Virus record (IMG/VR): IMGVR_UViG_3300025102_000038
Span: 1 to 54,099 of that record
DNA from: a virus
Lineage: Duplodnaviria; Caudoviricetes
Length of the DNA: 54,099 bases
Direction: 5' to 3' (one strand)
A program made the translations under genes and the position numbers. Below are positions 22,955 through 43,718 of this stretch, one piece after another. The notes under the pieces were generated by a model. It did not search any database, had not been told where the DNA came from, and was given only the letters and a program-made list of their open reading frames with translations. Numbering within the stretch: the first letter of the stretch is position 1; every line of letters begins with the position of its first letter.

Positions 22955-23135
22955 ACTGCACCACCTGTCCTGTGTTCCACTTGGCTGCTTCCTTCTGTGC
23001 GTCCTCATGAGTATCAAACAGTTTGATAGGACTCTTGTCATCCCACATAGCACCACAGCCTTGTTTAACGTAGGTCAAGCCTTCCTCTTCAAAAGGCTCA
23101 AACACTACTGCGTATTGTATAAGTTTTGTTGTCAT
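22947..23135 (-). CDS. hypothetical protein
   Basis: coupled ORF with GGAG RBS. Confidence 0.6.
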   Translation of the reverse strand: MTTKLIQYAVVFEPFEEEGLTYVKQGCGAMWDDKSPIKLFDTHEDAQKEAAKWNTGQVVQYG

Positions 23136-24136
23136 GAATATACTCCTTCTAATATGTGCGAGATCACTGCACGAGTGAAGCCATTGCCGATCATCTTGTA
23201 GCGTTGGCTGTTTGATATAGGCTTGAGTTTGTGTACCCGAAACCCCATGTGTTTATCCTGCTCGACAAACTGTCCATACTCTGTCCATCCATCAGGCAAA
23301 GTCTGTAGACGCTCACATTCTAAAGGTGTTAATGCTCTCCAATGTAGCTCGTCTGTCTCTACCTTGGGCATTCGCCATCCACCTTGCATGGTAGTCAGGG
23401 TAGGACTCTTGCCTTGCCTAGAGTACACACGCTTGATGATGTCATAGCCTTTGAGGTCAGCTTCACCGACTTGCTTACAACCTTTGTGATTGAAGACTAC
23501 TTGTCTACGAGACTTCTCAAAGTACATCTTCATGCTACCACCTTTGAAGTAGTTGGCATCAATGCAGTAGGACTTGTCTCTATCTGCCATAGCACCATCT
23601 TCTAGCACATCATTGAGTACGATGCCCATGTCAGCTAACTCGTCATGTGGTGAGTTAGTTATGTAGACACGCTTTCTCTCCTGACCTGTCACCTTGCCAC
23701 TGTTGTGAGATCGCATCTGTGCATCTGGACGTATGGCACTGATACGCTTGTACCACTCATGCTTGGCTTTGGACTCGACATTCTCAAACAGATAGAACTC
23801 TGGGTTCAAACCTTCCAATGCATCATACATAACCTCAGACAAGTCACGACTATCTGAAGTGCCAAGCTGTTTACCTGCCACGCTGTAAGGCTGACAAGGG
23901 AAACCTGCGATCAGAAGAAAGACATCTCTGCCCAACAGTTCTCGCCAACCATTGGCATCGCCATGATGTATGGCATGAGGTATGTTATGTTTGGACACAG
24001 CACTAGCATACTTGTCTGTTTCGAATGTGTGATACTCGTAGTCACCATCAGGTGATACATCAATACCTGCATCAAGGCATGAGAGGTAGGCACTGTCTGT
24101 GCCACCACACAAACTAACTACTATCTTTTTCGTCAT
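23132..24136 (-). CDS. C5 cytosine DNA methyltransferase (orphan)
   Basis: GFPCQ catalytic motif, ENV, Q.R.RVY, TP.ECERLQT, YKMIGNG. Confidence 0.9.
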   Translation of the reverse strand: MTKKIVVSLCGGTDSAYLSCLDAGIDVSPDGDYEYHTFETDKYASAVSKHNIPHAIHHGDANGWRELLGRDVFLLIAGFPCQPYSVAGKQLGTSDSRDLSEVMYDALEGLNPEFYLFENVESKAKHEWYKRISAIRPDAQMRSHNSGKVTGQERKRVYITNSPHDELADMGIVLNDVLEDGAMADRDKSYCIDANYFKGGSMKMYFEKSRRQVVFNHKGCKQVGEADLKGYDIIKRVYSRQGKSPTLTTMQGGWRMPKVETDELHWRALTPLECERLQTLPDGWTEYGQFVEQDKHMGFRVHKLKPISNSQRYKMIGNGFTRAVISHILEGVYS

Positions 24137-24302
24137 TAGCACTCTCCTTTCTTAAATCGTTTATCATGTTTACCCACTTAGACATCTCTTGCTGATGCCT
24201 AAGTTGGGCTTCTTTCTCACGTTTGTCCTGCACAATCTGCGACTTCTTACGCAGGATGTGAGGATTGCGTGGCTTCCACGCTTTGATCTTCTTGTTAGCC
24301 AT
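24114..24302 (-). CDS. small basic protein
   Basis: KPRNP motif; coupled ORF. Confidence 0.55.
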   Translation of the reverse strand: MANKKIKAWKPRNPHILRKKSQIVQDKREKEAQLRHQQEMSKWVNMINDLRKESANDEKDSS

Positions 24303-24303
24303 G

Positions 24304-25161
24304 TTAAGCCACTACCAACTGCTTGAAGGTAGGTGAGTCTACCCACTTGGCAACCTCTTGCTCTCGCTTGAACAGGGTGACTTCTCTGGTATCCTTACCA
24401 GTGTTCCTGATCTTGAAGTTGTTTCTCTCGTCACCATAGGTAGCGTAGTTGGTGAAAGCACTGTACAGTGAGAATACATTCTCACCCCTAGTATGAGACT
24501 CGTCTTTGTACAAGGAGAACATTTTCTCTGCCTTCTTCTCAGAAGGTATTATCTTGGACAAGATACTTGGCACATCAAGACTAGCAAGATTTATCTTGCC
24601 CCAAGTATTGAGCCTACCCATACGATCAGAGAAGTCTGTGTACCCATCGTATAGTCTCTTCTCCAGACCACCGATGGTAAAGTTAGAAGTGTTCTTACAC
24701 TTCGTCATGTCATACTCACCTGTGATCATACCATTGGTGCAGAAGAAGTCGATAGCACCAAAGTAAATCAGATTACCACATGTACCATCCACACCATGCA
24801 ACGCAATGATACGATAGCCTGTCTTGGTCTTGTGACCATTGTTGGTAACGATATCATAAGTCACATTAGGTAATGTGATATCCATTCGTAGCCAACCACC
24901 ACCATGAGCAGATCGGAAGGCTACAGTCATACCTTCTAGCTGTTCGGGTGTATGGTTGTCACGGACAACCTTGTAGACAGAAGAGCAGAATGCTCTGTGT
25001 CCTGCAGGGCTAAAGCCCTTGCCCATATGAGCAATGACATCGCCAGTCACAGGGTTGACCACAAACTTGTGACCTTCCATCCGTGACTTCTCGTACTGAG
25101 GTACGAAATCACAGATCTCTGGAAGTTGTTGGATTGTGTTAGGTGTAAAATCTAAAGCCAT
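24304..25161 (-). CDS. DUF932-like early protein
   Basis: H..DG....,FFCTNGM, YSAFTNYAT motifs; GAAAGGAG RBS. Confidence 0.75.
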   Translation of the reverse strand: MALDFTPNTIQQLPEICDFVPQYEKSRMEGHKFVVNPVTGDVIAHMGKGFSPAGHRAFCSSVYKVVRDNHTPEQLEGMTVAFRSAHGGGWLRMDITLPNVTYDIVTNNGHKTKTGYRIIALHGVDGTCGNLIYFGAIDFFCTNGMITGEYDMTKCKNTSNFTIGGLEKRLYDGYTDFSDRMGRLNTWGKINLASLDVPSILSKIIPSEKKAEKMFSLYKDESHTRGENVFSLYSAFTNYATYGDERNNFKIRNTGKDTREVTLFKREQEVAKWVDSPTFKQLVVA

Positions 25162-25181
25162 AATTGACTCCTTTCTCTTGG

Positions 25182-25421
25182 TTAATGATAAGTTGGCATC
25201 TCAGGATGCTGTTCATAGACATAGCCTACGTCTGGCTCTGAGTCAAGTAGATACTCTTTTACAAAGAGAAACTCTACCTTGGCATCAGGATAGCAAGACC
25301 TAGTTACGTCCAATGCGTAGTTAATTGCAGATGAACTGTCCATAATGGTGGGGTACGAGTAAGACACTCGCACCACACCCTTCTGTTCATCTACGGATAC
25401 AAAGACCTCGTAGTGGATCAT
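25182..25421 (-). CDS. hypothetical protein
   Basis: 79-aa ORF in early operon. Confidence 0.6.
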   Translation of the reverse strand: MIHYEVFVSVDEQKGVVRVSYSYPTIMDSSSAINYALDVTRSCYPDAKVEFLFVKEYLLDSEPDVGYVYEQHPEMPTYH

Positions 25422-25423
25422 TG

Positions 25424-25738
25424 TTAGGCTACCTTCTTCTGGATGAGGAAGGACTTGATTGGCACATATTGTGCCACTCTTCGCTTGCCCTTTCTATCGT
25501 AGGCATGGAAGCAAGAGTAACTCTTGCCAAAGTTCAAGCGAACCAAAGGTTCACCTGACTTGCCACCTTTACCCTTACGGATAAACCATCCTGTCTCTTG
25601 GACTTTGTCATTCCTGTAGATGACAGGCTTGTAGCCTTGTAGCTTCAGCTTGATTGCTGTAGCAATAATTTTGATGGCAGTGAAACCACCAGAGATTTTT
25701 GTGCCTTTTGGCAAGTTGTCAAAGTTAAATGTAAGCAT
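25424..25738 (-). CDS. basic hypothetical early protein
   Basis: GAAAGGAG RBS; 104 aa. Confidence 0.7.
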   Translation of the reverse strand: MLTFNFDNLPKGTKISGGFTAIKIIATAIKLKLQGYKPVIYRNDKVQETGWFIRKGKGGKSGEPLVRLNFGKSYSCFHAYDRKGKRRVAQYVPIKSFLIQKKVA

Positions 25739-25763
25739 GGTAATGCTCCTTTCTGTGTTGTGT

Positions 25764-25782
25764 CTCCCAACAATGTCGGGAA
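25764..25782. repeat. near-palindromic element copy 1 (TCCCAACAATGTCGGGA)
   Basis: five copies in the same orientation within 25.7-28.9 kb. Confidence 0.9.
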
Positions 25783-25800
25783 ACGTTGGGTTTATGTACC

Positions 25801-25847
25801 ACAGTTATATAGTACTTTCACTAAAGTTCAAGTACTATATTAACTGT
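25801..25847. promoter_or_regulatory. long hairpin with loop TCACTAAAGTTC
   Basis: stem TATAGTACTT/AAGTACTATA plus outer ACAGTTA/TAACTGT. Confidence 0.75.
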
Positions 25848-26244
25848 ATACTCTAATGAGAGGTCTTCCCTCTCTTATCATGAGCTTGACCATCGTCATG
25901 TCATTGCCCACTGTCTCACCTGTATCTTCGTAGACAAAGGTGGTGTTCTTGTATGGATTGTACGTCACATTTCTCCACGTTTTACCTGAGTAGTAGTAAT
26001 CGTCCCACTCTTCAGCCGTAAACTTGTAGGGTCTATACCCTACAGCAAAGGCATGGACATTCTTCTTGCCCTCTTCAATGACACGCTTACGTCCCCCTTG
26101 TCTTACGACAAAGCTAGGGTTGGTAAGAAATACGTCATTGGTTCGGTCAATCACACGGTTAGTCTTGTAGTCCTGTAAGGAATACATACCCTTGTGAATA
26201 TTCCAATATGCTCTTACGAATTGATCATACATAGTCACCTCCAA
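25840..26244 (-). CDS. conserved phage hypothetical protein
   Basis: YWN.HK..YS, FVVRQGGRKRV..EGKKNVHAF, VTYNPY motifs. Confidence 0.75.
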   Translation of the reverse strand: MEVTMYDQFVRAYWNIHKGMYSLQDYKTNRVIDRTNDVFLTNPSFVVRQGGRKRVIEEGKKNVHAFAVGYRPYKFTAEEWDDYYYSGKTWRNVTYNPYKNTTFVYEDTGETVGNDMTMVKLMIREGRPLIRVYS

Positions 26245-26521
26245 AAGTTATAGTTGTTTCTCTCAAGCTACTATAAGTAGCTCCTACTGGTACAATTACC
26301 TTGTGTCCTTCAGACCATAGGTGTTCACCTATAGACTTCCAAGCTTCTTCCAGATAATAGTCAAGATCTGTATAGAATATACAGAGAGGATACTGCTTAA
26401 CTTTGTTAAGCCTTGTTGTACCTTCATCATAGGCATAGATATCATATGCCCACTTCTTTGCTATATAGGACAAAGACCTACTATGATCAAGAGGTAATTC
26501 GTCTTGAAATACTATCATCAT
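26225..26521 (-). CDS. hypothetical protein
   Basis: AAGGAGTAGC-ATG junction. Confidence 0.65.
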   Translation of the reverse strand: MMIVFQDELPLDHSRSLSYIAKKWAYDIYAYDEGTTRLNKVKQYPLCIFYTDLDYYLEEAWKSIGEHLWSEGHKVIVPVGATYSSLRETTITFGGDYV

Positions 26522-26522
26522 G

Positions 26523-26663
26523 CTACTCCTTTGCGTCTATGGAATCTTCAAGAACTTGTTTAAGTTCTAGTAGAACAGCTAAAGTAAACTCATCTCTGAT
26601 GAGATACTTTACCTCATGTATTTTATTTTTCTGCACAATAATTTTATCTTCATTGTCCATCAT
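26523..26663 (-). CDS. hypothetical protein (46 aa)
   Basis: GAAAGGAGTAGC-ATG junction; MMDNEDKIIVQKNK... Confidence 0.6.
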   Translation of the reverse strand: MMDNEDKIIVQKNKIHEVKYLIRDEFTLAVLLELKQVLEDSIDAKE

Positions 26664-26664
26664 G

Positions 26665-26823
26665 CTACTCCTTTCTGCTTGAGTTTATTTCTATTTCAGT
26701 TAAAAGATACTCTTGTTCAGTTATATAAGAATAACTTTCAAGAAACTCTTCCTTCGATAGTTGATGAAAATCAACCATCTTTTCTGCATCATCAGAAAAA
26801 TCTTTGTATTCAACGTCAGTCAT
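26665..26823 (-). CDS. small acidic protein (52 aa)
   Basis: GAAAGGAG RBS; MTDVEYKDFSDDAEKMVDF...EEFLESYSYITEQEY. Confidence 0.65.
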   Translation of the reverse strand: MTDVEYKDFSDDAEKMVDFHQLSKEEFLESYSYITEQEYLLTEIEINSSRKE

Positions 26824-26904
26824 TATGCTACTCCTTTCTGACGTAGTCTAAGTTTACGGACAAGCCTTCTCTCTCTAAGAGAGTTGTGCTTATCCCTTCT
26901 GTCA

Positions 26905-26923
26905 TTCCCAACATTGTCGGGAA
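26905..26923. repeat. near-palindromic element copy 2 (TTCCCAACATTGTCGGGAA)
   Basis: identical to copy at 27754. Confidence 0.9.
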
Positions 26924-26970
26924 ACACTTTCCTCTTCTTGGAAGAGGAAGCATTCTTTTGAAAGTTAATA

Positions 26971-27732
26971 TTACTTTGTGTCATTTGCTATCTCCGATGC
27001 TTTAGCTTTTCTGTTACCATGTGCAGGGAAACCAATAATGGTTTCTCTGTGAGACATAGCACAGAGTTTACATTTAGCACAGTCCATATCGTCCCGATAT
27101 GTAGCAGGACAGACTGTGACCTTCTTCCCCTTCGGGGTCTTGATGTTCCACAGATCAACTCTTGATCTGTACTCATCATAAGTCTCTGACCAGACACCTT
27201 TCTTGACATGCTTTCTTTCGTAGAAAGATGGCATGACAGCAGTGACTGGAGCAGGTTTGTGTCCAAAGGACACAAGTTCTGCCAAGTCATCAGCATGAGA
27301 CATGCTGTTACCTGACAAGTTAATGACAAAGCTTGCTTGTTTGTTACAGACCATGACTATCAGTCTATTCATAGGATCTGACATGTCATGATGAGTATAA
27401 GTGAAGCCTTTCTTGCCACCAAGTCTACAAGCTTCTTCAAGCTTGAAGACCTTATCAGCATCAATCTCCCCATTCTTATGGGGAAGATCTCCTGCTTGAT
27501 TATGTCTCCACAAAGCTGTGGCTTTGTCCTGTACTGTCTGACAAAAGTCATCCCAGTCAAGACCAATGTCTGGAACTCTGTTCCAGTGTCCCTTCAAAGG
27601 GTAGCCATCTGCATAGCAACCCTTTCTTCTTAGAGGACAAGAGGTAGGACAAGAGTCCTCTTCAGTCGTACTGACTGAAATCTCACCAGTCTTGATATTC
27701 GATGACTTCAAAGTCAAGTGAACTTTACTCAT
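26971..27732 (-). CDS. Cys-rich early protein (Gp88-like, possible metal/Fe-S binding)
   Basis: CPTSCP....CYA, RHNQAGD, FTYTH, INLS, CPA.....C..C.LC, FPAHG. Confidence 0.7.
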   Translation of the reverse strand: MSKVHLTLKSSNIKTGEISVSTTEEDSCPTSCPLRRKGCYADGYPLKGHWNRVPDIGLDWDDFCQTVQDKATALWRHNQAGDLPHKNGEIDADKVFKLEEACRLGGKKGFTYTHHDMSDPMNRLIVMVCNKQASFVINLSGNSMSHADDLAELVSFGHKPAPVTAVMPSFYERKHVKKGVWSETYDEYRSRVDLWNIKTPKGKKVTVCPATYRDDMDCAKCKLCAMSHRETIIGFPAHGNRKAKASEIANDTK

Positions 27733-27753
27733 TTTAAACTCCGTTTAAGTTGC

Positions 27754-27772
27754 TTCCCAACATTGTCGGGAA
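27754..27772. repeat. near-palindromic element copy 3
   Basis: TTCCCAACATTGTCGGGAA, about 21 nt upstream of ATG 27732. Confidence 0.9.
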
Positions 27773-27799
27773 TGGTTTCGGTTTGGTCGGCACTAAAGT

Positions 27800-27863
27800 C
27801 TATAACACTAATAGAAATATAACACCTTCACTAAAGTTCAGGTGTTATATTTCTGTGTTATAG
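27800..27863. promoter_or_regulatory. long hairpin with loop TCACTAAAGTTC
   Basis: 15-bp stem AGAAATATAACACCT/AGGTGTTATATTTCT plus outer CTATAACAC/GTGTTATAG. Confidence 0.8.
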
Positions 27864-27886
27864 TCTAAGTCTCTTCGGCAATCAAG

Positions 27887-27967
27887 TCATAGTCTGAATC
27901 CCCCACTAAGCCAATAGCAATAAAAAAAGACTAGCATAAATGCTAGTATCAAAAGTAAACAAGTCAT
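27887..27967 (-). CDS. putative 26-aa membrane peptide
   Basis: GGAG RBS; MTCLLLILAFMLVFFYCYWLSGGFRL. Confidence 0.4.
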   Translation of the reverse strand: MTCLLLILAFMLVFFYCYWLSGGFRL

Positions 27968-28040
27968 AGTTTAATCTCCGATTAAAAGGGTTGAAACAAA
28001 AAAAAGAGCATAGCACCTTAGTGCTATACTCTTTAGGTGA

Positions 28041-28775
28041 AAGGTAGCTTACGCTACCTTCCTCTTCTTCTGAGAAACCTTTGGTTTCTCTTGTGAAGCA
28101 TGGTGCAACTCTATGAGTTGCAGTATAACCTCTTCGAGGTTAAGTTGCTTCTTAGAAGCAAGTTCAGCAGTGAACTGAGCCAAACCCTTGGGGTTTGTAG
28201 GGACTTTAACCTTGGTTAACTTCTTTACAGAAGTTACCTCATTCCCAACATTGTCGGGATTGACCTCAACCTTTGGTTGAGACTGAGAAGTCGTAGACTT
28301 CTTCTTGGAAGCCTTTGGCTTCTTCCTTGTTGAGAAGTCACCGACTTCTTCAACAAATGCTCTTTTCATCGCTGAAAGCGATGTAAAGCCAAGGGATTGT
28401 TTTCCACTAGTGAGAACTCTGTTCTCAAGCCAAGCAGTGATTTGATCATGGTTCTTATAGAACCATAATGTTTCACTTCTCCTCTGAGAAGTGAGTTTGT
28501 TCAGAGAACACTCTTCCAATCTCTGATTGGAGATCCTGCCGTATTTGCTTTCCAAGCAAAGCTCATCGATCAGCTTACCAGTTTGGTAAGCTAGTCCACC
28601 AGACTGAGTATCAGTCTTGTGAAGCTTGGAATGCTCTAACAGAAACTGAGCAGTTTCTGAAGCAATGACAGCTCCCCTAGCTTCAAAAGTACCACTGTAC
28701 TTTTGGAAAGCTTGAGGTTTCTTAGAAACCTTAGGAGCAACTTTAGTTGCTTTAGCAGAGTTGCTCTTTAGAGCA
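28041..28775. repeat. tandem array of short inverted repeats inside coding sequence
   Basis: 28 hairpins (5-9 bp stems, 2-4 nt loops) read directly from the sequence. Confidence 0.92.
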
Positions 28776-28804
28776 GTTACGAGTTTGGATTTTGTGTTTG
28801 GCAT
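28049..28804 (-). CDS. first early gene, Lys/Ser-rich protein of unknown function
   Basis: 251-aa ORF with GAAGGAGG RBS. Confidence 0.75.
   Translation of the reverse strand: MPNTKSKLVTALKSNSAKATKVAPKVSKKPQAFQKYSGTFEARGAVIASETAQFLLEHSKLHKTDTQSGGLAYQTGKLIDELCLESKYGRISNQRLEECSLNKLTSQRRSETLWFYKNHDQITAWLENRVLTSGKQSLGFTSLSAMKRAFVEEVGDFSTRKKPKASKKKSTTSQSQPKVEVNPDNVGNEVTSVKKLTKVKVPTNPKGLAQFTAELASKKQLNLEEVILQLIELHHASQEKPKVSQKKRKVA
28243..28259. repeat. near-palindromic element copy 4 (intragenic)
   Basis: TCCCAACATTGTCGGGA. Confidence 0.9.
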
Positions 28805-28878
28805 TTTGCCCTCCTTCTATTAATTGGTTAACACATTTGTAAACAAATGTTGTGTTAACCAATTACTAGGGTTGCCGA

Positions 28879-28896
28879 TCCCAACAATGTCGGGAA
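28879..28896. repeat. near-palindromic element copy 5
   Basis: TCCCAACAATGTCGGGAA upstream of first early gene. Confidence 0.9.
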
Positions 28897-28959
28897 TGGA
28901 TCATACCCCCTTGGGGTATGTTTTTGGATGACCAAAGAATGACCATAGGCTTTAGCCTA

Positions 28960-29260
28960 AACCTAATTTTTTCAGAAATCTTGACCTCAATCGACTGATT
29001 GCCTATGGCAACTGATGTGATAACAGTTGCTTTTAAAAACAAACTCGTTTGTTTTCAAGGCGATGGGCATTCCAAGGTGCATTGCGATGCACAATTTGCG
29101 TTCACCACGCATCGGGATGCACGATTTTACCTGCATCGGGCATCGGGACGCATGGGGAAGGGGGGGTGCGTCAGATATATACATATATAAATACACAGAT
29201 TAGGAAAAATGAGTGTTAACCACTTTGGTACGGATATAGACAGGGGTGTCAAATAATTGG
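28960..29260. other. strand-switch region; candidate genome terminus/packaging or origin site
   Basis: non-coding, GC-rich GCATCGGG repeats and G-run followed by AT-rich tract, between divergent arms. Confidence 0.45.
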
Positions 29261-29262
29261 TA

Positions 29263-29291
29263 TTGACTACTAAAAGCATACATGATATAAT
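29263..29291 (+). promoter_or_regulatory. sigma70-type promoter for the late arm
   Basis: TTGACT-17 nt-TATAAT. Confidence 0.75.
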
Positions 29292-29648: not shown

Positions 29649-29942
29649 ATGGTAATGAAAAAAGATAAAATGAAGAAAAAAGGCATGGCAGTGGGAGGAC
29701 TCAAAAAACCTGCAACAGGAGCTAAAGGACTAAAGAAGTTGCCTACACCTGTACGTAATAAAATGGGCTACATGAATAAAGGTGGCACAATGAAGAAGAA
29801 GGGTATGGCTCGTGGTGGAGCTATGAAGAAAAAAGGTTACGCAAAAGGTGGAGCAATGAAAAAGTACGGCACTATGTATAAAGCAGGTGGTGCTGTGGCA
29901 GGAAAAAAGTACGGAATGATTGACAAGAAGAAGAAGAAATAG
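29649..29942 (+). CDS. Lys/Met/Gly-rich repeat protein with five xxxGG motifs
   Basis: AGGAG RBS; MKKKG[MY]AxGG repeats. Confidence 0.8.
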   Translation: MVMKKDKMKKKGMAVGGLKKPATGAKGLKKLPTPVRNKMGYMNKGGTMKKKGMARGGAMKKKGYAKGGAMKKYGTMYKAGGAVAGKKYGMIDKKKKK

Positions 29943-29957
29943 TATAATTATGTCACT

Positions 29958-30668
29958 ATGGCATATTTACAAAGTAACATTCCGTATTTCAAAGCTTGGG
30001 TAAGACGAGAGTATACCTGTAACTTTGAAAAATATTATGGCGAGTTTTTACACTGCATGGTTATAGCTGTAACAACTATGCCAAATAGGTCACTCAGCTT
30101 TCAAGTTATATTTACTGGCTGTGAGACTGACGATACTGACGAACCAAATGTGCATGGTGGAGCTATGTGGGCTAGAATGCCTATCACAGCCCTAGTAGGA
30201 GACACTCCTGTAGAAGACTGGGCTGAAGAAATGCCACCCTACATAGCACAACCTTGGGATTGTATGTCCCATGATCATAGTGTGTATGTATTAGACAGAG
30301 CTACACCTGCACCGTGGATAGCAAAAGTGGATGGAGAGTTCTATCCTGCTAAATATTACTTTACTGTGGACTACACAAACAGTGAGATAGCTGATGATCC
30401 TGCACAACATAAGCAGTCACACGTACTAGAACTGATGGATGCAGGTAAATACACAGGAAACATTGTGGCATTACCTAATAATAGAGTCAGAGTGACACAT
30501 CCTGCATGGTTTGAAGCAGGAGAAGGACCACCTGACTTTAGACCCTCCCAAAGAATCTTTCATTCAAAGCAAGAAACGGAATATGTGTGGGATACTGGAA
30601 GAGTATTCAATAACTTATATGCAAAGGAAAAGAAAAATGGCAGCAACACCAAGAAAAAAAGTAAATAA
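29958..30668 (+). CDS. conserved phage protein of unknown function
   Basis: globular 236-aa ORF with PWDC, YYFTVD, HKQSH, LPNNR motifs. Confidence 0.75.
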   Translation: MAYLQSNIPYFKAWVRREYTCNFEKYYGEFLHCMVIAVTTMPNRSLSFQVIFTGCETDDTDEPNVHGGAMWARMPITALVGDTPVEDWAEEMPPYIAQPWDCMSHDHSVYVLDRATPAPWIAKVDGEFYPAKYYFTVDYTNSEIADDPAQHKQSHVLELMDAGKYTGNIVALPNNRVRVTHPAWFEAGEGPPDFRPSQRIFHSKQETEYVWDTGRVFNNLYAKEKKNGSNTKKKSK

Positions 30669-38805: not shown

Positions 38806-38956
38806 TTATATAGGGTTCTTGATAGTACAGAATCACGCTATTATGGAGCAGACAAACGACTTAGTCACACTTCATAGATCACAAGGTGCTATCGCTATGC
38901 TAAGACGATTACGACAACTAAGGGATCATGTAAACTCCAATGGGTCTACTAAGTAA
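38711..38956 (+). CDS. small conserved protein after portal
   Basis: HRSQGAI..LRRL motif. Confidence 0.65.
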   Translation: MNNNNQNNPQINLYSKLKPLVNNKDHWDSFSDYIGFLIVQNHAIMEQTNDLVTLHRSQGAIAMLRRLRQLRDHVNSNGSTK

Positions 38957-41900
38957 AGCTGTAAAACAGGGATTAATAGACAATCCCCAAATCATTACTA
39001 AGAAACAGGATGAAGTTGCTAAAGAAGCAAAGGATAGGGCTGACTTAAATGCAAACGATCCTAACACAAATCCTGATGTGTATGATGAGCAGATGGCAGA
39101 TCCTAATGTGTCTAAGATCACAGTGCCTGAAGATCCCACTCCTATTCTTGGAAGTATGTATGGAGACTTAGTGCAAACATTTGAGTCCATGCCCTTTTAC
39201 GGAAAAGAGACAATATCAGGAGCAAACTTTGTAGAACAGTTAAATTATTATGTAAAAAATATTCAAGGCAGAAATATACCATTGTATAAATTTATGGAGA
39301 AGCGAGGAGCTTTTAAAAAATTTAGAGACAATCCCAAAAAACAATTTACAAAAAAAGAAATATTAGATTCTTTAAAAGACTTTTCTTCTTTTGAATTTAG
39401 AATAAGAGTGGATAAAGATACATTATACCGACCTCAACAAAGACTACCTATTGATGAGAGTGCAGGAGATTATAAAAAAGTAGGTTATGCTGAAGTAACT
39501 TTACATGCTCCCATAGATAATACTGTACCTTCAATACAAAAATTTGCAGACAAACACTTTAAGGGAAATACTATAGGACACACTAGATCTTCTTTTGTGT
39601 ATAACAATAAAACTAAAGAGTCGGCTGTTATGCCTGAAGAGGTACAAGGAGATCTTTTTCAAAACATTGGAAAAACAGTAGATGTTACAAGAGATAGATT
39701 AACTAACATACCTACATATGATAATTTTCAAGAGACAACTTTGGTTGGTAATCAAACAATGAGTTTAGTAGGTATTAGAGCAGATACTACACTAACTAGA
39801 TCTGAATCCCCTAGTTGGTTTGCTACTTCATTTATAGCACCTACTCGATCTTATAACAACCTAAAAGAAAATTTAAGGCTTGAATATTTTCTTATGGAAG
39901 ATAATGCAATGCTACTTAATAGGATAAAAGAAGGTAGAGTTCCACTAAATGAAGAAGTTGCTAATGCCATAGGAAGAGATAAAGGTATAATGAACATTGG
40001 CTCTCCAGATGCAACAAGCAGGATGGATGAAAACAAAAGTAGATTTATATCACAATTATTTGCTAAAGGTTTTTCACCAAAACAAATTAGAGAAAGGCTA
40101 GAAAAATATTTTTCTAAATCTAGTTCTGAACTAAAAGGTGAAAGTTTAACTGAAAGACAGATACAATCATTTTTAAGAAAAGAGAAACAAAATAAAATAG
40201 ACCATTATAAAGAAGTATTTAATAAAAATTTTATTGGTATTGGAGAGGAAGCTCAAGATATTAGTGGTGGCACTATAACTGCATTTAGTGAGTTACCTAG
40301 ATTAGGTGCATTAATAGATAAATTAGAAAAAAATTATGCAACAGGTTCGGCTGAAAGACAACCTTTTTTTACATTGCGATATATGCAAAGTTCTCTTTAT
40401 GAAACTCTAAGAAATTTAGAACTTGGAGAATCATTTGACGATATAACGGATTTTTCTCAATTTAAAAGTTACGAAAAACTAAGAAAGTTAAATGCACAAA
40501 AATTAAAAGATATTCAAAACACTATGCCTAGAACAATGGTATCTGGTTATGACTATAGAAATCCTAGTGCGATACCTGTATTTATGCAACGTTTTGCTGC
40601 TCATGGTTTTAACATGACAGAGAGAACAGATATGATTAATAGTATTCTTTCTAAATATAATTTAAATTATTTTAGAGGTGCAAATATAAGAAAGGGTCAT
40701 CAAGACGGACAGGTAAATGATGGTGAGAGAGATAGATTTTTAACTGATGGTTCTACTAATTATGCAGGGCAAATAAAATATCCTGATGGTTCTATTAAAA
40801 CTTATATGAATGCCAATGAAAGATTTTTAAGATATTTTGATGAAATAAATGAAGATAGACAAATAGGAGCTTCTACTTGGTCTGACCACCATCCTGAATA
40901 TCAAGAGCATTTAATTCAAGAAGAATTTAAGTTACCTGATTTTGAAGATGCATATCCAAACATATCACAACCTTTACCTTACAATTTTGAAGACACTAAA
41001 AAAAGAATGAAAAAAATTGTTGACGATTTAAATGAACAATACAAAGCTATAAATGAAGCCAGACAAGAGTTTAGCAAAAATTATATGAAAGCTTTTGAAG
41101 AGGATAATTTACATAATATACCAGTAGATCCTTTTGGAGATGCAGGTCCTTTTTCTTATACCCGACTCACAAATGTTACTATGTGGAGAGAGACTAAAAA
41201 TAAAGCAGTAGTAGGAAAAGATGCAGGTGACTATGGACGTTACTATGATGATACAATTAGTCCTCCACAAAAAGAAGTTATATCTACTGACTATGAACAA
41301 AATTTTATAGATAATCAAAATGCTGTTACACAGGAACGAGATGCTTACAATAGAAAAGAAGATGAAATTACAGATTTAGAAAATGATCCACGATTGAATG
41401 ACCCATCTGGTGATGATGGTCTTTCTGAACAACTAGACGAGTTATACAATGATCTATCCGATATAGCACTAGATATAGATAAGGCAGAAGAAAGAATGTT
41501 AAGAGATTTAACAGCAAAAAATATAGGCAATTTTGCTACACTCTTTGACCCTTTTGAACATGTATTTGATCCGAAACAAATAAATGAACTAAAGTTAATT
41601 GACTTTGATGAAATAGTAGATGACTATGGAACAGAAAAAGATCCTAGATTTGGTGCAAGCTTTGTTGCTCATGTAATGCGTGAAGTTACAAAACAAGATT
41701 ATTTAAATGGTTTAAATGATTTTGGTTATACTGTGTTTAGTGAGCTAGATATGAATAGATTAAAAAATACTCTTAGTAGTGTCGAAGCCAGAAAAACTTC
41801 TATGGAATCATATCAAAGATTAGAGGATCTGTCATATAACCCATTAAAGAAAGATGACTATATTACAAAAGGTTTAAACAGGGTTGTAGAAAAAGATGAT

Positions 41901-43718
41901 TTACCTATAGCAGACAAGTTAGACTTTTTGTACAAAATGGTTATTGGGCAAATGATGCTTGCTAAAAAATTAAAAACAAACAAAGTAATCATACCAAATG
42001 CTTCTGAGTTAATTAATTTAAGAGAAAAGCCTACCCCCGAACAAATGGTAAAATTAGGAAGATTTAAGGCTAATAGTAGAGAGTTTAAAAAGGCTGAAAA
42101 AGAGTATGATGAATTAAGGCACACAAGAGCAGATGGTACAAAGTATAGTGATAGACAAAAAAGAAAAGGTAAAGATGATCTCTATAATAAATCAAGAGTA
42201 TTAATGATGGATCTATTAAAGAAAAGATTTGGGGATGATGTAAAAATATATGAGATAAAACAAACTTTTAACAATCCTCCTAGAGAAGTACCTGCAACAG
42301 TTATAGAGTTTAACTTTGACTTTGATCCTGAAAAACAAATGATAAAAATGAAAGAGGGTGGGCTTGTACAGATAGACAATATGCGAGAGTCAATGAATTT
42401 GTTTACAGACCCAAAAGCATTTGGTGATGATGAGTATAGACAAAATGCTATACGAGAAGCTTTGGAAGCAGGTGTAATATCATTTAACTTTAACGAAGGG
42501 GGAGTAACTGATCCTGCACCTAAACCACCGATGATAGATTATATAACACAACAAGACTATAAAGAAAGAGCAGGAGAACTGTTTGAGAAAGATGACTTAT
42601 ATAGAAAGTATCCCAGTTCTTTTTATGCATATAGAAAACAGACGTTTGACTTTCCAGATTCTGCAGAGCAACCTGAGTTTGAAAAGGCTAGTCCAATGCT
42701 AGGTAGCTTAGAGTTTGAAGCTGATGTTATTCCCAAGTTTAGAACTACAGCTTTAGGCAGGCTAGGGTTCTATAGTGCAAGTGATGGCACAGGAATGTCT
42801 GATCCAAAGGTAGAAAAGGTAGACGAAGCTTTTCAAGGATCACAAGGATCATTTCGTCCATCAAATATGACCATAGCATTAACAAATGATCCCGAAGAGG
42901 GAGATAGAATACGAGCTTATAGAAGAATAGTATCAGAAAAAGATCCACTAAGAATACCACCATCCTCGCTTCCTCATCCTGAGTTAGAGAGAATGTACAC
43001 TTTAAATGCAGAAAATCCTACACCTGAACATGAATCTATTCATAGAGCAATATTAATATTACAAAACTATTATGCAAATGATAGAGACTATGTTGTTAAG
43101 AAGTATGGTGAAGAAACAGGTAATGTTTTATTTGATTTATTAAATCCTTCTAGAGATAATAATTATTTTCAACTATCTAATGAAGTATTAACTGAACAAA
43201 ATGATGCCATAAGATCAGGTGCTAAGTTTGATTCTGAAACGTATTTACGAAGAACACTTGGTGAGAGAGATGTAGATTTAAGAAACTATAAAGCAAAATA
43301 TAAAGACATGTTTAACGAAAAAGACTCATTAGCAAACAATATAGATCGCATTGTTAGAGCAGGGGGAGAAGAACCTAGACATATACTAAATAGAATAAGA
43401 GGTAGTTCTAGAGAAGGACATGCAGACATTGTATTGAGTATATTTGATAGAATAACAAAGCAGTTACCTAACTTAGAAGAGTTAGCCAAAGAAAGATTGT
43501 ATGACAGAAATCCTAAAGGTGGACCTACCTTTGATGCAAGAGGAATAGCAAAGGGAAGTTTAGACAAAGGGTTTTATGATAACTTAAAAGTAGACAGAGC
43601 ATCTGGAGAGGAGACAAAAAACTTTCTGCAGAGACAACTACAAAAATTTAGAGATCGAAGAAATTTGAAATCTAATATTAGAGCAAGTGAATCAATGGAC
43701 TTAGGTGGAAGGTTTTAA
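38940..43718 (+). CDS. large multi-module (polyvalent-like) virion protein
   Basis: 1592 aa; H.R...EEVQGD motif; HESIH; internal MKEGG/FNEGG. Confidence 0.7.
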   Translation: MGLLSKAVKQGLIDNPQIITKKQDEVAKEAKDRADLNANDPNTNPDVYDEQMADPNVSKITVPEDPTPILGSMYGDLVQTFESMPFYGKETISGANFVEQLNYYVKNIQGRNIPLYKFMEKRGAFKKFRDNPKKQFTKKEILDSLKDFSSFEFRIRVDKDTLYRPQQRLPIDESAGDYKKVGYAEVTLHAPIDNTVPSIQKFADKHFKGNTIGHTRSSFVYNNKTKESAVMPEEVQGDLFQNIGKTVDVTRDRLTNIPTYDNFQETTLVGNQTMSLVGIRADTTLTRSESPSWFATSFIAPTRSYNNLKENLRLEYFLMEDNAMLLNRIKEGRVPLNEEVANAIGRDKGIMNIGSPDATSRMDENKSRFISQLFAKGFSPKQIRERLEKYFSKSSSELKGESLTERQIQSFLRKEKQNKIDHYKEVFNKNFIGIGEEAQDISGGTITAFSELPRLGALIDKLEKNYATGSAERQPFFTLRYMQSSLYETLRNLELGESFDDITDFSQFKSYEKLRKLNAQKLKDIQNTMPRTMVSGYDYRNPSAIPVFMQRFAAHGFNMTERTDMINSILSKYNLNYFRGANIRKGHQDGQVNDGERDRFLTDGSTNYAGQIKYPDGSIKTYMNANERFLRYFDEINEDRQIGASTWSDHHPEYQEHLIQEEFKLPDFEDAYPNISQPLPYNFEDTKKRMKKIVDDLNEQYKAINEARQEFSKNYMKAFEEDNLHNIPVDPFGDAGPFSYTRLTNVTMWRETKNKAVVGKDAGDYGRYYDDTISPPQKEVISTDYEQNFIDNQNAVTQERDAYNRKEDEITDLENDPRLNDPSGDDGLSEQLDELYNDLSDIALDIDKAEERMLRDLTAKNIGNFATLFDPFEHVFDPKQINELKLIDFDEIVDDYGTEKDPRFGASFVAHVMREVTKQDYLNGLNDFGYTVFSELDMNRLKNTLSSVEARKTSMESYQRLEDLSYNPLKKDDYITKGLNRVVEKDDLPIADKLDFLYKMVIGQMMLAKKLKTNKVIIPNASELINLREKPTPEQMVKLGRFKANSREFKKAEKEYDELRHTRADGTKYSDRQKRKGKDDLYNKSRVLMMDLLKKRFGDDVKIYEIKQTFNNPPREVPATVIEFNFDFDPEKQMIKMKEGGLVQIDNMRESMNLFTDPKAFGDDEYRQNAIREALEAGVISFNFNEGGVTDPAPKPPMIDYITQQDYKERAGELFEKDDLYRKYPSSFYAYRKQTFDFPDSAEQPEFEKASPMLGSLEFEADVIPKFRTTALGRLGFYSASDGTGMSDPKVEKVDEAFQGSQGSFRPSNMTIALTNDPEEGDRIRAYRRIVSEKDPLRIPPSSLPHPELERMYTLNAENPTPEHESIHRAILILQNYYANDRDYVVKKYGEETGNVLFDLLNPSRDNNYFQLSNEVLTEQNDAIRSGAKFDSETYLRRTLGERDVDLRNYKAKYKDMFNEKDSLANNIDRIVRAGGEEPRHILNRIRGSSREGHADIVLSIFDRITKQLPNLEELAKERLYDRNPKGGPTFDARGIAKGSLDKGFYDNLKVDRASGEETKNFLQRQLQKFRDRRNLKSNIRASESMDLGGRF

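Follow-up and report, generated by a model that had tools for sequence, protein, structure and literature searches.

A one-sided zone of short hairpins

The window, that is, the whole 54.1-kb stretch of DNA analysed here, is the genome of an HMO-2011-type marine podophage, and it raises the question of why, in an abundant type of marine phage, the first 4–5 kb of one arm should be tiled with hairpins that are written through coding genes, and whether these hairpins act as DNA or as RNA. Defining a hairpin as a perfect inverted repeat with a stem of at least 7 bp and a loop of 0–8 nt, we found that 56 of the 77 hairpins in the genome fall between 24.3 and 29.1 kb (24300..29060, no strand assigned; 4.8 kb; binomial p 7e-42), at a density of 11.7 per kb as opposed to 0.43 per kb outside, with local dinucleotide shuffles yielding 0.1–1.2 per kb (maximum 4). 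The stems are 7–9 bp long, the loops mostly 3 nt, and the stem sequences all differ from one another; stems with one mismatch are few (8 vs 56 perfect). The excess noticed in the preliminary description of this sequence is therefore real. Each hairpin quoted there is present (at 28902, 26929, 27150, 27257, 27291, 27434, 27570, 25460 and 25511, the last reading GCAAGAGT-a-ACTCTTGC), and the gene at 26971–27732, credited with about 11, contains 12, or 10 if loops are restricted to 1–6 nt.

The zone begins about 250–300 bp upstream of the first leftward gene (hereafter gene 1) and is one-sided, the rightward arm showing no hairpin excess. The counts per kb bin are 6, 2, 8, 14, 25 and 1 for kb 24 through 29 and 0–3 in the remaining bins, so that the proposed gradient decaying away from the strand switch is seen over 24–29 kb but is not strictly monotonic: there are more hairpins at 24–25 kb (6) than at 25–26 kb (2), one gene within the zone has none, and the left edge is a gene boundary just before a methyltransferase gene, with no smooth tail. 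The GC-corrected folding-energy residual per 150 nt follows the same grading across 24–28 kb (-5/-9, -5/-10, -5/-9, -10/-15 and -18/-18 kcal/mol on the +/- strands for kb 24 to 28); outside the zone, most bins differ from zero by no more than about 5 kcal/mol (about 9 at most), the largest residuals being those of kb 47–48 on the + strand and of kb 1 and 14 on the - strand.

Genes and conserved elements of the leftward arm

Gene 1 (28049..28804, - strand), which occupies the first position throughout the family, encodes a 251-aa protein with Lys-rich ends and no match in Pfam or PHROG. Its 21 hairpins, about one per 33 nt, cover 51% of its bases, and it folds with a z of -11.4 as sense RNA and of -19.5 as + strand DNA under DNA energy parameters. 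It is followed on the same strand by a DUF7227 gene (26971..27732; Pfam E 5e-71), where the 12 hairpins are accommodated by codon choice, a 98-aa ORF (26225..26521; 4 hairpins), a gene similar to mycobacteriophage L5 gp82 (25840..26244; 1), the gene for a 104-aa basic protein (25424..25738; 2), a 79-aa ORF (25182..25421; 0), the 285-aa p285 gene (24304..25161; 6) and a C5 cytosine methyltransferase gene (23132..24142; 0). Beyond DUF7227 and the L5 gp82-like gene, comparison of the zone genes with Pfam and PHROGs revealed no known family.

Superimposed on the unrelated hairpins is a repeated hairpin motif, TCCCGACA[AT]TGTTGGGA, with five copies in the window, all on the - strand: upstream of gene 1 (28878..28896), within gene 1 (28242..28260, coding for PDNVGNE, where the NVG residues and a palindrome are retained across the family), some 20 nt ahead of the DUF7227 ribosome-binding site (27754..27772), at 26905..26923, and upstream of the 104-aa gene (25764..25782). 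The zone co-extends with 4–7 same-orientation copies of such a lineage-specific motif sited before genes. An intrinsic-terminator-like hairpin, with 14 pairs and a trailing T run, lies just after gene 1 (28003..28034, -), and an intergenic hairpin with the conserved loop TGAACTTTAGTGAA (27817..27851, -) has a paralogue at 25807..25841 (-), the stems of the two differing through compensatory changes. Immediately ahead of the ribosome-binding site of gene 1, a long operator-like inverted repeat built on GTGTTAACCA (28821..28866, no strand assigned) holds TAATTGGTTAACAC...GTGTTAACCAATTA, the first of the intergenic hairpins originally pointed out. Further up are a family-conserved hairpin, CAACTGTTAT-N3-4-ATCAGTTG (29009..29031, -), and a C-rich tract on the leftward sense strand (29150..29174, -), which is conserved in position across the family and just downstream of which the zone starts. 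The divergent switch itself contains the family-conserved block GTGGTTAACAC-N6-TTTTCC(T)(G/A)ATCTGTGT (29193..29223, -). Two sigma-70-like promoters point rightward, a near-consensus one (29263..29291, +; TTGACT-17-TATAAT) that faces the arm without hairpin excess, and a consensus one (29920..29948, +; TTGACA-17-TATAAT).

Recurrence among related phages and the extent of the zone

Plotted against coordinate in the window, hairpin density is not flat, and the one-sided peak recurs in 66 non-identical related loci. In a meta-profile of these loci anchored on gene 1, the dense group (14 loci) shows at most 0.3 hairpins per kb beyond -1.25 kb, 0.7–1.2 from -1.0 to -0.25 kb, 15 at -250 to 0, 18–28 within gene 1, about 10 at 1–3 kb and about 1–2.5 by 4–5 kb; the weaker group (52 loci) shows 5.3 per kb at -250 to 0, 4.5–8.3 up to +1.25 kb and about 1–2 thereafter. 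The cultured phages CRP-1 and HMO-2011 display the trait weakly, and it is conserved down to about 22–25% overall gene 1 identity (local matches 27% and up).

In each of the two dense clades the zone runs up to the methyltransferase gene, ending at about +3.3 kb in one clade and at about +4.4 kb in the second. Members of the p285 family located 2–5 kb from gene 1 (4 loci) carry 5.8–7.9 hairpins per kb vs 0.5 in those at 5–9 kb (5 loci); p285 is hairpin-bearing only where it is sited before the methyltransferase gene, and its orthologues outside the zone in the L011-like clade have about none. Hairpins are likewise missing from distant DUF7227 homologues that do not belong to this phage group.

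These boundaries bear on the possibility, which we regard as a serious but rather doubtful one, that the hairpins act as single-stranded DNA. The zone would then adjoin a packaging or entry end, or an origin, and either of its strands would often be exposed by unwinding or resection; hairpins folding in both strands would protect or cap it against exonucleases or enzymes of the RecBCD/AddAB type, and variable headful cut sites would call for protection over several kb with falling probability, hence the gradient. The sharp one-sided onset by a conserved non-coding block that includes repeats, AT-rich DNA and a C/G-rich tract is in keeping with this, and so is the relative phiM6, which is reported to be pac-type and terminally redundant and whose PhageTerm-predicted initiating cut lies inside the equivalent divergent switch, which allows for an end near 29 kb in the window. 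With such an end, both of the convergent arms would be read from the genome ends toward the interior, the layout of phage N4. However, phiM6 has a flat hairpin profile with no zone and shares none of the family's switch blocks, and if packaging proceeds in the direction given in the phiM6 record, toward the terminase genes, the terminal redundancy would fall on the hairpin-free side. The far edge tracks a gene boundary rather than a fixed distance, double-stranded phage DNA is single-stranded only briefly, and the portions of the family literature retrieved by a term search do not mention termini.

A double-stranded form of action, with the palindromes serving as cruciform-prone supercoiling sinks or as targets of a structure-specific protein (the gene 1 product and the 104-aa protein being candidates), appears very improbable. 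The repeats do have perfect two-fold symmetry and short spacers, and the 104-aa protein, for which sequence searches gave no matches, is present in all 11 high-density loci that extend far enough downstream (91–99% identical in 10, 56% in L102), with no copy found in the low-density ones. The clades that show this association, however, are only two and are related, and common descent may lie behind it; arms of 7–9 bp are short for cruciform extrusion; and, because all stem sequences differ, no sequence-specific binder fits.

Selection for hairpin density through codon choice

Synonymous-codon shuffles of gene 1 yield 1.8 hairpins (maximum 5) vs the 21 observed, and those of the DUF7227 gene yield 0.64 (maximum 4) vs 12. 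Amino acid identity to distant homologues is about equal in stem codons (0.436) and other codons (0.473), and among close relatives the rates of amino acid change are equal in the two classes; thus, the hairpins were fitted by codon choice and not by the simultaneous rewriting of 2–3 codons. When stems are defined in a third genome, synonymous third positions diverge by 1.6–2.6% in stems vs 6.3–7.0% (p 0.003–0.05). Within two clades, there are about 3-fold fewer variants per site in stems (0.027) than in the surroundings (0.083), and an excess of compensated pairs in stems (8). Between clades, 0–2 of the 12 DUF7227 hairpin centres coincide (0.2–1.1 at random), as do 8 of 21 in gene 1 (5.2 at random, p 0.07). 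Between clades, density is kept and hairpin positions are not, a pattern of bulk rather than positional function.

Such turnover would also be expected if the repeats were a by-product of locally raised template-switch (quasi-palindrome) mutation, which would make and re-repair them to no function. Template switching can create hairpins, and the perfect, strand-symmetric stems, the short loops, the paucity of one-mismatch stems and the excess of compensated pairs are all compatible with it; nevertheless, we consider this origin unlikely. The hairpin coverage of gene 1, along with conservation of the trait at such low identity, is hard to explain without selection, stem codons are as conserved in protein as the others, and the methyltransferase gene, although within the distance range, has no hairpins.

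The hairpins are therefore a property of the region and not of one protein, as the preliminary description had argued, given that unrelated genes carry them, that they are placed by synonymous codons under constraint in the stems, that p285 has them depending on its position and distant DUF7227 homologues lack them, and that positions turn over while density is kept. That interpretation as a whole is only partly supported: selection on DNA rather than RNA does not follow from these data, the extent of the zone suiting a class of transcripts at least as well. Real, one-sided and tied to position, the tiling is a conserved, selected feature with no described counterpart, and we found no account of such a hairpin zone in the literature.

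Base pairing, strand bias and a proposed shielding of the first transcripts

The zone matches a set of putative transcription units marked by the repeated motif, and in two clades one and the same gene ends it, at a distance that differs between them; a class of transcripts hence accounts for its extent no less well than does remoteness from a DNA end. We put forward, with somewhat less than even confidence, a selected structured domain in which bulk self-structure shields the first transcripts; that RNA is the acting molecule, and that the role is protective, we infer. The first 3–5 kb of the leftward arm would be kept densely self-complementary regardless of the resident gene, with the number and density of hairpins counting and individual hairpins not. 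Tiled in this manner, the first set of transcripts would have no long unpaired stretch and would be poor substrates for factors that need single-stranded RNA to load on or to scan, at a time when phage proteins have yet to be made, candidate threats being attack by RNase E or J, Rho loading, endoribonuclease toxins and guide-RNA pairing. The need would be greatest in promoter-proximal genes, which would produce the gradient. Early transcription by the host polymerase is insufficient on its own, since the rightward arm has two consensus sigma-70-like promoters and no hairpins. A few RNA-library contigs, all short, lie on the region.

Further observations count for the transcripts. The window's enrichment of stems that have a single internal G.T is 6.5x for the sense strand and 2.5x for the antisense strand; the loops, read on the sense strand, are rich in A (45% vs 32%); and in the window clade the G.T wobble of the repeated motif is on the sense strand only, where pairing is better than on the template strand. 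Against RNA, which should tolerate G.U, the enrichment over shuffles is almost wholly one of perfect Watson-Crick stems (40–55x vs about 2x where a stem has at least two G.T pairs). Across 40 representative loci, G.T-containing stems number 188 vs 164 and 124 vs 86 (sense vs antisense), a ratio no greater than the compositional bias of the other arm. Uncompensated transitions in stems, 10 wobble-making vs 14 mismatch-making (154 vs 176 outside stems), have no skew to sense-strand G.U, and stem-flanking mismatches are G.T in 12 cases on the + strand and 15 on the - strand. The excess is highest for 7-bp stems and slight at 5 bp, a peak that, by our own reasoning, is nearer the stability threshold of DNA hairpins than that of RNA hairpins. 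The enrichment is thus essentially Watson-Crick only, with no robust strand bias, and this symmetry, together with the strong gene 1 z under DNA parameters, speaks for single-stranded DNA.

Comparison with known systems

A close parallel to structured first transcripts is the genome-scale ordered RNA structure of some RNA viruses, along with the highly structured genomes of RNA phages. There, as in the zone, structure pervades coding sequence through codon choice, and its overall level rather than fixed helices is conserved; in both, it would limit access to single strands. Unlike these, the zone is in a double-stranded DNA phage and limited to 4–5 kb of one arm, and its uniform stems are almost without G.U enrichment.

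The leading region of conjugative plasmids and the first-step-transfer region of T5 had both been offered as analogies. The former is likewise a first-acting segment of a mobile element with apparently adapted composition and hairpin-forming DNA, but its hairpins are long, specific and few, and as single-strand promoters they restore promoter boxes on the transferred single-stranded DNA, in contrast to some 56 short, unrelated ones inside double-stranded phage genes. The T5 region resembles the zone in lying at one map end, in being rich in repeats and palindromes and in holding the earliest genes; its palindromes cluster in the non-coding injection-stop region, whereas those of the zone tile genes. 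We know of no two-step transfer in HMO-2011-type phages.

The repeated elements have parallels of their own. N4 virion RNA polymerase recognizes hairpin promoters that, like the five-copy motif, are short, have 3-nt loops and recur in the same orientation at the early end only. No RNA polymerase was detected in the window genome, where large virion ORFs have no Pfam or PHROGs match and crude motif scans were negative, and in the window clade the two strands of the motif differ, pairing being more complete on the sense strand than on the template strand. The PeSL (promoter-early stem-loop) cassettes of T4-type phages, intergenic units of promoter plus terminator, do not explain hairpins of unrelated sequence tiled within coding sequence; like the motif and the paired conserved-loop hairpins, they are small stem-loop cassettes repeated between early genes of a variable region.

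A marine phage with two divergent gene arms

The genes in the window identify a podovirus-like phage with two divergent arms. The leftward arm, on the minus strand from 28.8 to 10.7 kb, encodes ribonucleotide reductase, a Cas4-like exonuclease, DNA polymerase A, a DnaB-like helicase, an integrase and a C5 methyltransferase, and the rightward arm, on the plus strand from 29.4 kb onward, encodes the large terminase, the portal and the major head and tail proteins; the arms diverge at about 28.8–29.4 kb (hereafter, the switch). On the basis of the large terminase, which shares 82% identity with its counterpart in Roseobacter phage CRP-1 and 80% with that in Puniceispirillum phage HMO-2011, we assign the window, a complete contig of 54,099 bp, to the HMO-2011-type marine phages. 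Such phages are very common in marine viromes and rank among the most abundant marine viruses. There is no overlap between the contig ends that would indicate a circular genome, and the ORF at the 3' end terminates just beyond the junction.

More than 590 relatives were matched in one scan. Sequencing runs containing the stretch or part of it come from 12 studies, with at least half of its words present in six runs; the matches (20 holders) are assembled contigs. Pieces from RNA libraries on the region are short and few (24467–24917 and 29907–30329) and uninformative as to the hairpins. A megablast search of the 24–30 kb region against phage records, an Rfam search of the whole window at the gathering score, and a search of representative genomes for prophages or hosts with a profile of the first leftward gene (gene 1; 28049–28804, minus strand, 251 aa) produced no matches, and the window contains no tRNA or tmRNA genes. 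Between 24000 and 38000, the summed depth of marine metagenome contigs is about 17–60 (mostly 17–36) over 24–29 kb vs 100–1700 in parts of the rightward arm, so that the first leftward genes look strain-specific and parts of the rightward arm common to co-occurring relatives.

Short perfect hairpins are concentrated at the start of the leftward arm

Hairpins were defined as perfect inverted repeats with a stem of at least 7 bp and a loop of at most 8 nt. The preliminary description, made from the sequence alone, reported a local excess of such elements, and all the hairpins quoted there were found in the sequence. Between 24 and 29 kb, successive 1-kb bins contain 6, 2, 8, 14, and 25 hairpins, compared to 0–3 in all other bins and 0.1–1.2 per kb in local dinucleotide shuffles; of the 77 hairpins counted genome-wide, 56 fall within 4.8 kb (the zone, 24300–29060; binomial p 7e-42). 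Loops of 3 nt are present in 27 of 55 zone hairpins. Stems of 5, 6, 7, 8, and 9 bp number 32, 24, 31, 16, and 7, respectively, with none of 10 bp or more, and the excess over the rest of the genome is highest for 7-bp stems. Gene 1 alone encompasses 21 hairpins that cover 51% of its bases, and folds with a z-score of -11.4 as sense RNA and -19.5 as plus-strand DNA. The GC-corrected energy profile shows the same grading, with sharp edges and a regional residual of -9 to -18 kcal/mol per 150 nt. The gradient decaying away from the switch, as originally proposed, holds in that the density grades across 24–29 kb, but the fall-off is not strictly monotonic, and one gene within the zone lacks hairpins.

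The one-sided peak recurs in related phages

Near-identical contigs show the same profile as the window, and terminase-anchored loci that extend far enough upstream have the zone at the same place. Using a profile built on gene 1, we fetched 80 loci, 66 of them non-identical, comprising 14 dense loci (two clades) and 52 weaker ones. Upstream of gene 1, the dense loci contain at most 0.3 hairpins per kb beyond -1.25 kb and 0.7–1.2 per kb from -1.0 to -0.25 kb; the density then rises to 15 per kb between -250 bp and the gene 1 start and to 18–28 per kb within gene 1, remains near 10 per kb up to 3 kb downstream, and has gone down by 4–5 kb. The weaker loci display the same shape at a lower level (5.3 per kb from -250 bp to 0, 4.5–8.3 per kb up to +1.25 kb, and 1–2 per kb thereafter). 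CRP-1 is weakly positive (8, 3, 3, and 2 per kb from gp01), as is HMO-2011, with 13 hairpins in 3 kb spanning the record junction. The rightward arm shows no hairpin enrichment in any related locus profiled. Across the 66 loci, the density profile is a recurrent one-sided peak rather than a flat line. In phiM6, a more distant relative, the hairpin zone is absent.

In both dense clades, the zone ends at the C5 cytosine methyltransferase gene (23132–24142 in the window, minus strand), which lies at about +3.3 kb in one clade and about +4.4 kb in the other. The encoded protein is 71–98% identical in the dense loci that reach it, and the gene contains no hairpins in the window and almost none in the dense clades.

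Hairpin density is under selection and depends on position

In shuffles of synonymous codons that preserve both the protein and the codon usage, most of the hairpins are lost: gene 1 has 21 vs 1.8 (maximum 5) in the shuffles, the DUF7227 gene (26971–27732, minus strand) 12 vs 0.64 (maximum 4), and the 285-aa gene (24304–25161, minus strand) 6 vs 0.47. The stem codons are not distinguished at the protein level, with identity to distant homologs of 0.436 vs 0.473 for other codons and equal rates of amino-acid change among close relatives. Synonymous third positions, by contrast, diverge by 1.6–2.6% in stems vs 6.3–7.0% elsewhere (p 0.003–0.05; stems defined in a third genome). Among variants within two clades, counted in well-aligned columns passing a local-identity filter, stems carry 37 uncompensated changes in 1385 sites plus 8 compensated pairs, compared to 533 changes in 6401 sites elsewhere. 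Between clades, hairpin positions in orthologous genes coincide no more than by chance; the trait that is kept is density, not particular helices.

The density follows location. The 285-aa family, represented in two lineages, has 5.8–7.9 hairpins per kb where it lies 2–5 kb from gene 1 (4 loci) vs 0.5 per kb at 5–9 kb (5 loci), and DUF7227 homologs in an unrelated contig type show background density. Together with the codon shuffling, these comparisons bear out the suggestion that selection concerns a region and not one protein, be it at the level of DNA or of RNA. The hairpin feature is real, strong and conserved, is under selection, and is a property of the region, not of any single gene. 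A mutational by-product is third in our ranking of explanations, and we consider it unlikely; a templated mutational origin would yield the pairing pattern described in the next section.

RNA-level and DNA-level explanations

The explanation that we rank first, with a probability somewhat short of even, is that the hairpins would form a bulk structural shield of the first transcripts. Several observations count in favor of sense-strand RNA as the structured molecule: the zone matches the units marked by a repeated palindromic motif, and its far edge is defined by a gene; the G.T wobble of the window's motif is on the sense strand only; loops are A-rich on the sense strand; and one-wobble stems in the window number 16 in the sense vs 6 in the antisense orientation. 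Other observations count against RNA. Perfect stems are enriched 40–55x vs about 2x for stems with at least two G.T pairs, and mismatches flanking the stems are strand-symmetric. As in genome-scale ordered RNA structure, there is excess folding energy through coding sequence that is lost on codon shuffling, but the G.U participation and sense-strand preference expected of such structure were not found: pairing is Watson-Crick only, the family-wide sense-to-antisense ratio of wobble stems does not exceed the compositional bias of the other arm, and uncompensated stem transitions include 10 wobble-making vs 14 mismatch-making changes (n = 24).

Watson-Crick-only pairing without strand preference is what would be expected of single-stranded DNA exposed on either strand, and exposure of single strands near an end or origin is our second-ranked explanation, possible but less probable than the transcript shield. 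With regard to a physical end, the announcement of the phiM6 genome describes a terminally redundant genome predicted by PhageTerm, in which numbering starts at the initiating pac cut (position 1). In the phiM6 record, this position falls inside the divergent switch, so an end near the switch is possible in the family. The conserved switch blocks sought in phiM6 were not found, and this phage also lacks the hairpins. Two DNA contigs stop at about 29463, at which point the summed depth jumps; we interpret this point as a graph branch with relatives rather than a molecule end.

Tentatively, and with a chance well below even, we propose that HMO-2011-type phages use structure, not a protein, to guard the first nucleic acid exposed in a newly infected cell, such that tiled short perfect hairpins would hide the earliest transcripts, the DNA strands that enter first, or both from host nucleases, helicase-loaders or guide-based defenses until phage proteins take over. 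If true, this would be a cis-encoded, sequence-independent type of anti-defense layer that has not been described for double-stranded DNA phages. CRISPR evasion was set low because CRISPR is rare in the known hosts of the group (SAR116, the Roseobacter RCA lineage and SAR11). We found no earlier description of the zone in literature on HMO-2011 and hairpins, in broader queries, or in the main texts of the family papers searched by term. The zone shows that, in a double-stranded DNA phage, codon choice in several unrelated genes can be overridden by selection on nucleic-acid structure. Since dense, weak and absent variants all exist, the zone is a clean natural system for studying early-infection threats to a phage, and because the trait is easily scored in any sequence without further data, it could serve to recognize which end of an uncultured phage genome is 'first-acting'.

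Comparison with known hairpin systems

The initial reading likened the zone to the leading region of conjugative plasmids and the first-step-transfer region of T5. Single-strand promoters of plasmid leading regions (Frpo/ssi type) are long hairpins that rebuild double-stranded -35/-10 boxes on the transferred strand, whereas the zone stems are 7–9 bp long and unrelated in sequence, and a scan found no promoter boxes inside them. Such plasmids enter as single-stranded DNA with the leading region first; the window belongs to a tailed double-stranded DNA phage. The T5-type region has a fixed physical terminus that is first to enter, followed by a pause; for the relative phiM6, a pac-type, terminally redundant genome has been reported. 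Promoters of the N4 type are few conserved hairpins (5–7 bp, 3-nt loop) upstream of early genes; a five-copy motif of the window fits this shape and placement, and about 50 other zone hairpins share no common sequence. Among the 1336-, 1592-, 674-, 623-, and 448-aa ORFs, no Pfam or PHROG match and none of the motif patterns tried for an N4-type virion RNA polymerase were detected, although a very divergent one may be present.

Repeated motif and intergenic elements

This motif, TCCCGACA[AT]TGTTGGGA, occurs in five same-orientation copies on the minus strand (25764–25782, 26905–26923, 27754–27772, 28242–28260, and 28878–28896), four of them shortly upstream of genes, and is absent from the remainder of the genome. 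A distinct palindrome variant is present in each of the relatives examined (for example, GTCCAACGTTGGAC, GTCCGATGTCGGAC, and TAGTCCGACAGCGGACTA) in 4–7 copies over the same span. These variants constitute a family with a GTCC..GGAC core that is limited to the first 2.5–5 kb of the leftward arm (loci L098–L167, CRP-1, and HMO-2011), with one copy inside gene 1 in every relative examined, and this copy codes for a conserved NVG. Covariation between lineages is seen in the stems, and not all of the loops are palindromic. The motif could function as an operator, as part of a promoter or as a regulatory hairpin in RNA.

Gene 1 ends with an intrinsic-terminator-like hairpin. Two intergenic hairpins (25807–25841 and 27817–27851) are paralogous, with the common loop TGAACTTTAGTGAA and stems that differ by compensatory changes; in one of the TGAACTTTAGTGAA-loop hairpins, TTGAAC-16-TATAAC was recognized by eye. 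By analogy, these hairpins may represent promoter/terminator cassettes comparable to the PeSLs described for T4-type phages, which are repeated intergenic units of a sigma-70-like promoter and a terminator stem-loop. The motif and the paired hairpins resemble such units; the likeness would extend to the intergenic cassettes only, not to the hairpin tiling. A hydrophobic ORF of about 26 aa (27889–27966, minus strand) with its own ribosome-binding site separates the terminator of gene 1 from the following cassette.

A basic protein of 104 aa (25424–25738, minus strand), known from marine metagenomes only, is present in each of the 11 dense-clade loci with sufficient downstream sequence (91–99% identity in 10, and 56% in locus L102) and absent from all weaker relatives examined; the adjoining genes are about 48–62% identical between the two dense clades. 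PDB sequence profiles gave no significant match for this protein or gene 1, and the protein atlas no usable match for the former. The 104-aa protein may be a candidate hairpin partner, or it may just have been acquired by recent transfer. Our fourth-ranked explanation, that the hairpins have a role as double-stranded DNA or in protein binding, appears improbable; the zone stems are mutually unrelated sequences.

The switch contains blocks conserved across the family, and the zone starts just downstream of a C-rich tract, the position of which is also conserved. In the window, 29075–29174 comprises GC-rich repeats (GCATCGGG-like) along with a G-rich/C-rich tract, and the next 230 bp are AT-rich; these repeats and tract could represent an origin, a leader element or a pac site. 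There are three copies of GTGTTAACCA (28821–28866 and 29211–29223), two of which form a long inverted repeat directly next to the ribosome-binding site of gene 1, and in related loci the switch contains several GTTAC/GTAAC half-sites. Considered along with the integrase, these repeats and half-sites resemble an operator region of the immunity type.

At the start of the rightward arm, there are two predicted consensus-like sigma-70 promoters. Nearby, a small gene (29649–29942, plus strand) contains a 21-nt repeat (AATGAAGAAAAAAGGCATGGC-like) in three internal copies and occurs in several length variants among metagenome contigs. The 1592-aa ORF (38940–43718, plus strand), located between the portal gene and the 674-aa ORF, has no family match and a very low GC content (0.30–0.33). 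CRP-1 and HMO-2011 have one gene only at this place, of about 715–760 aa, and the 1592-aa ORF is possibly a recent insertion.
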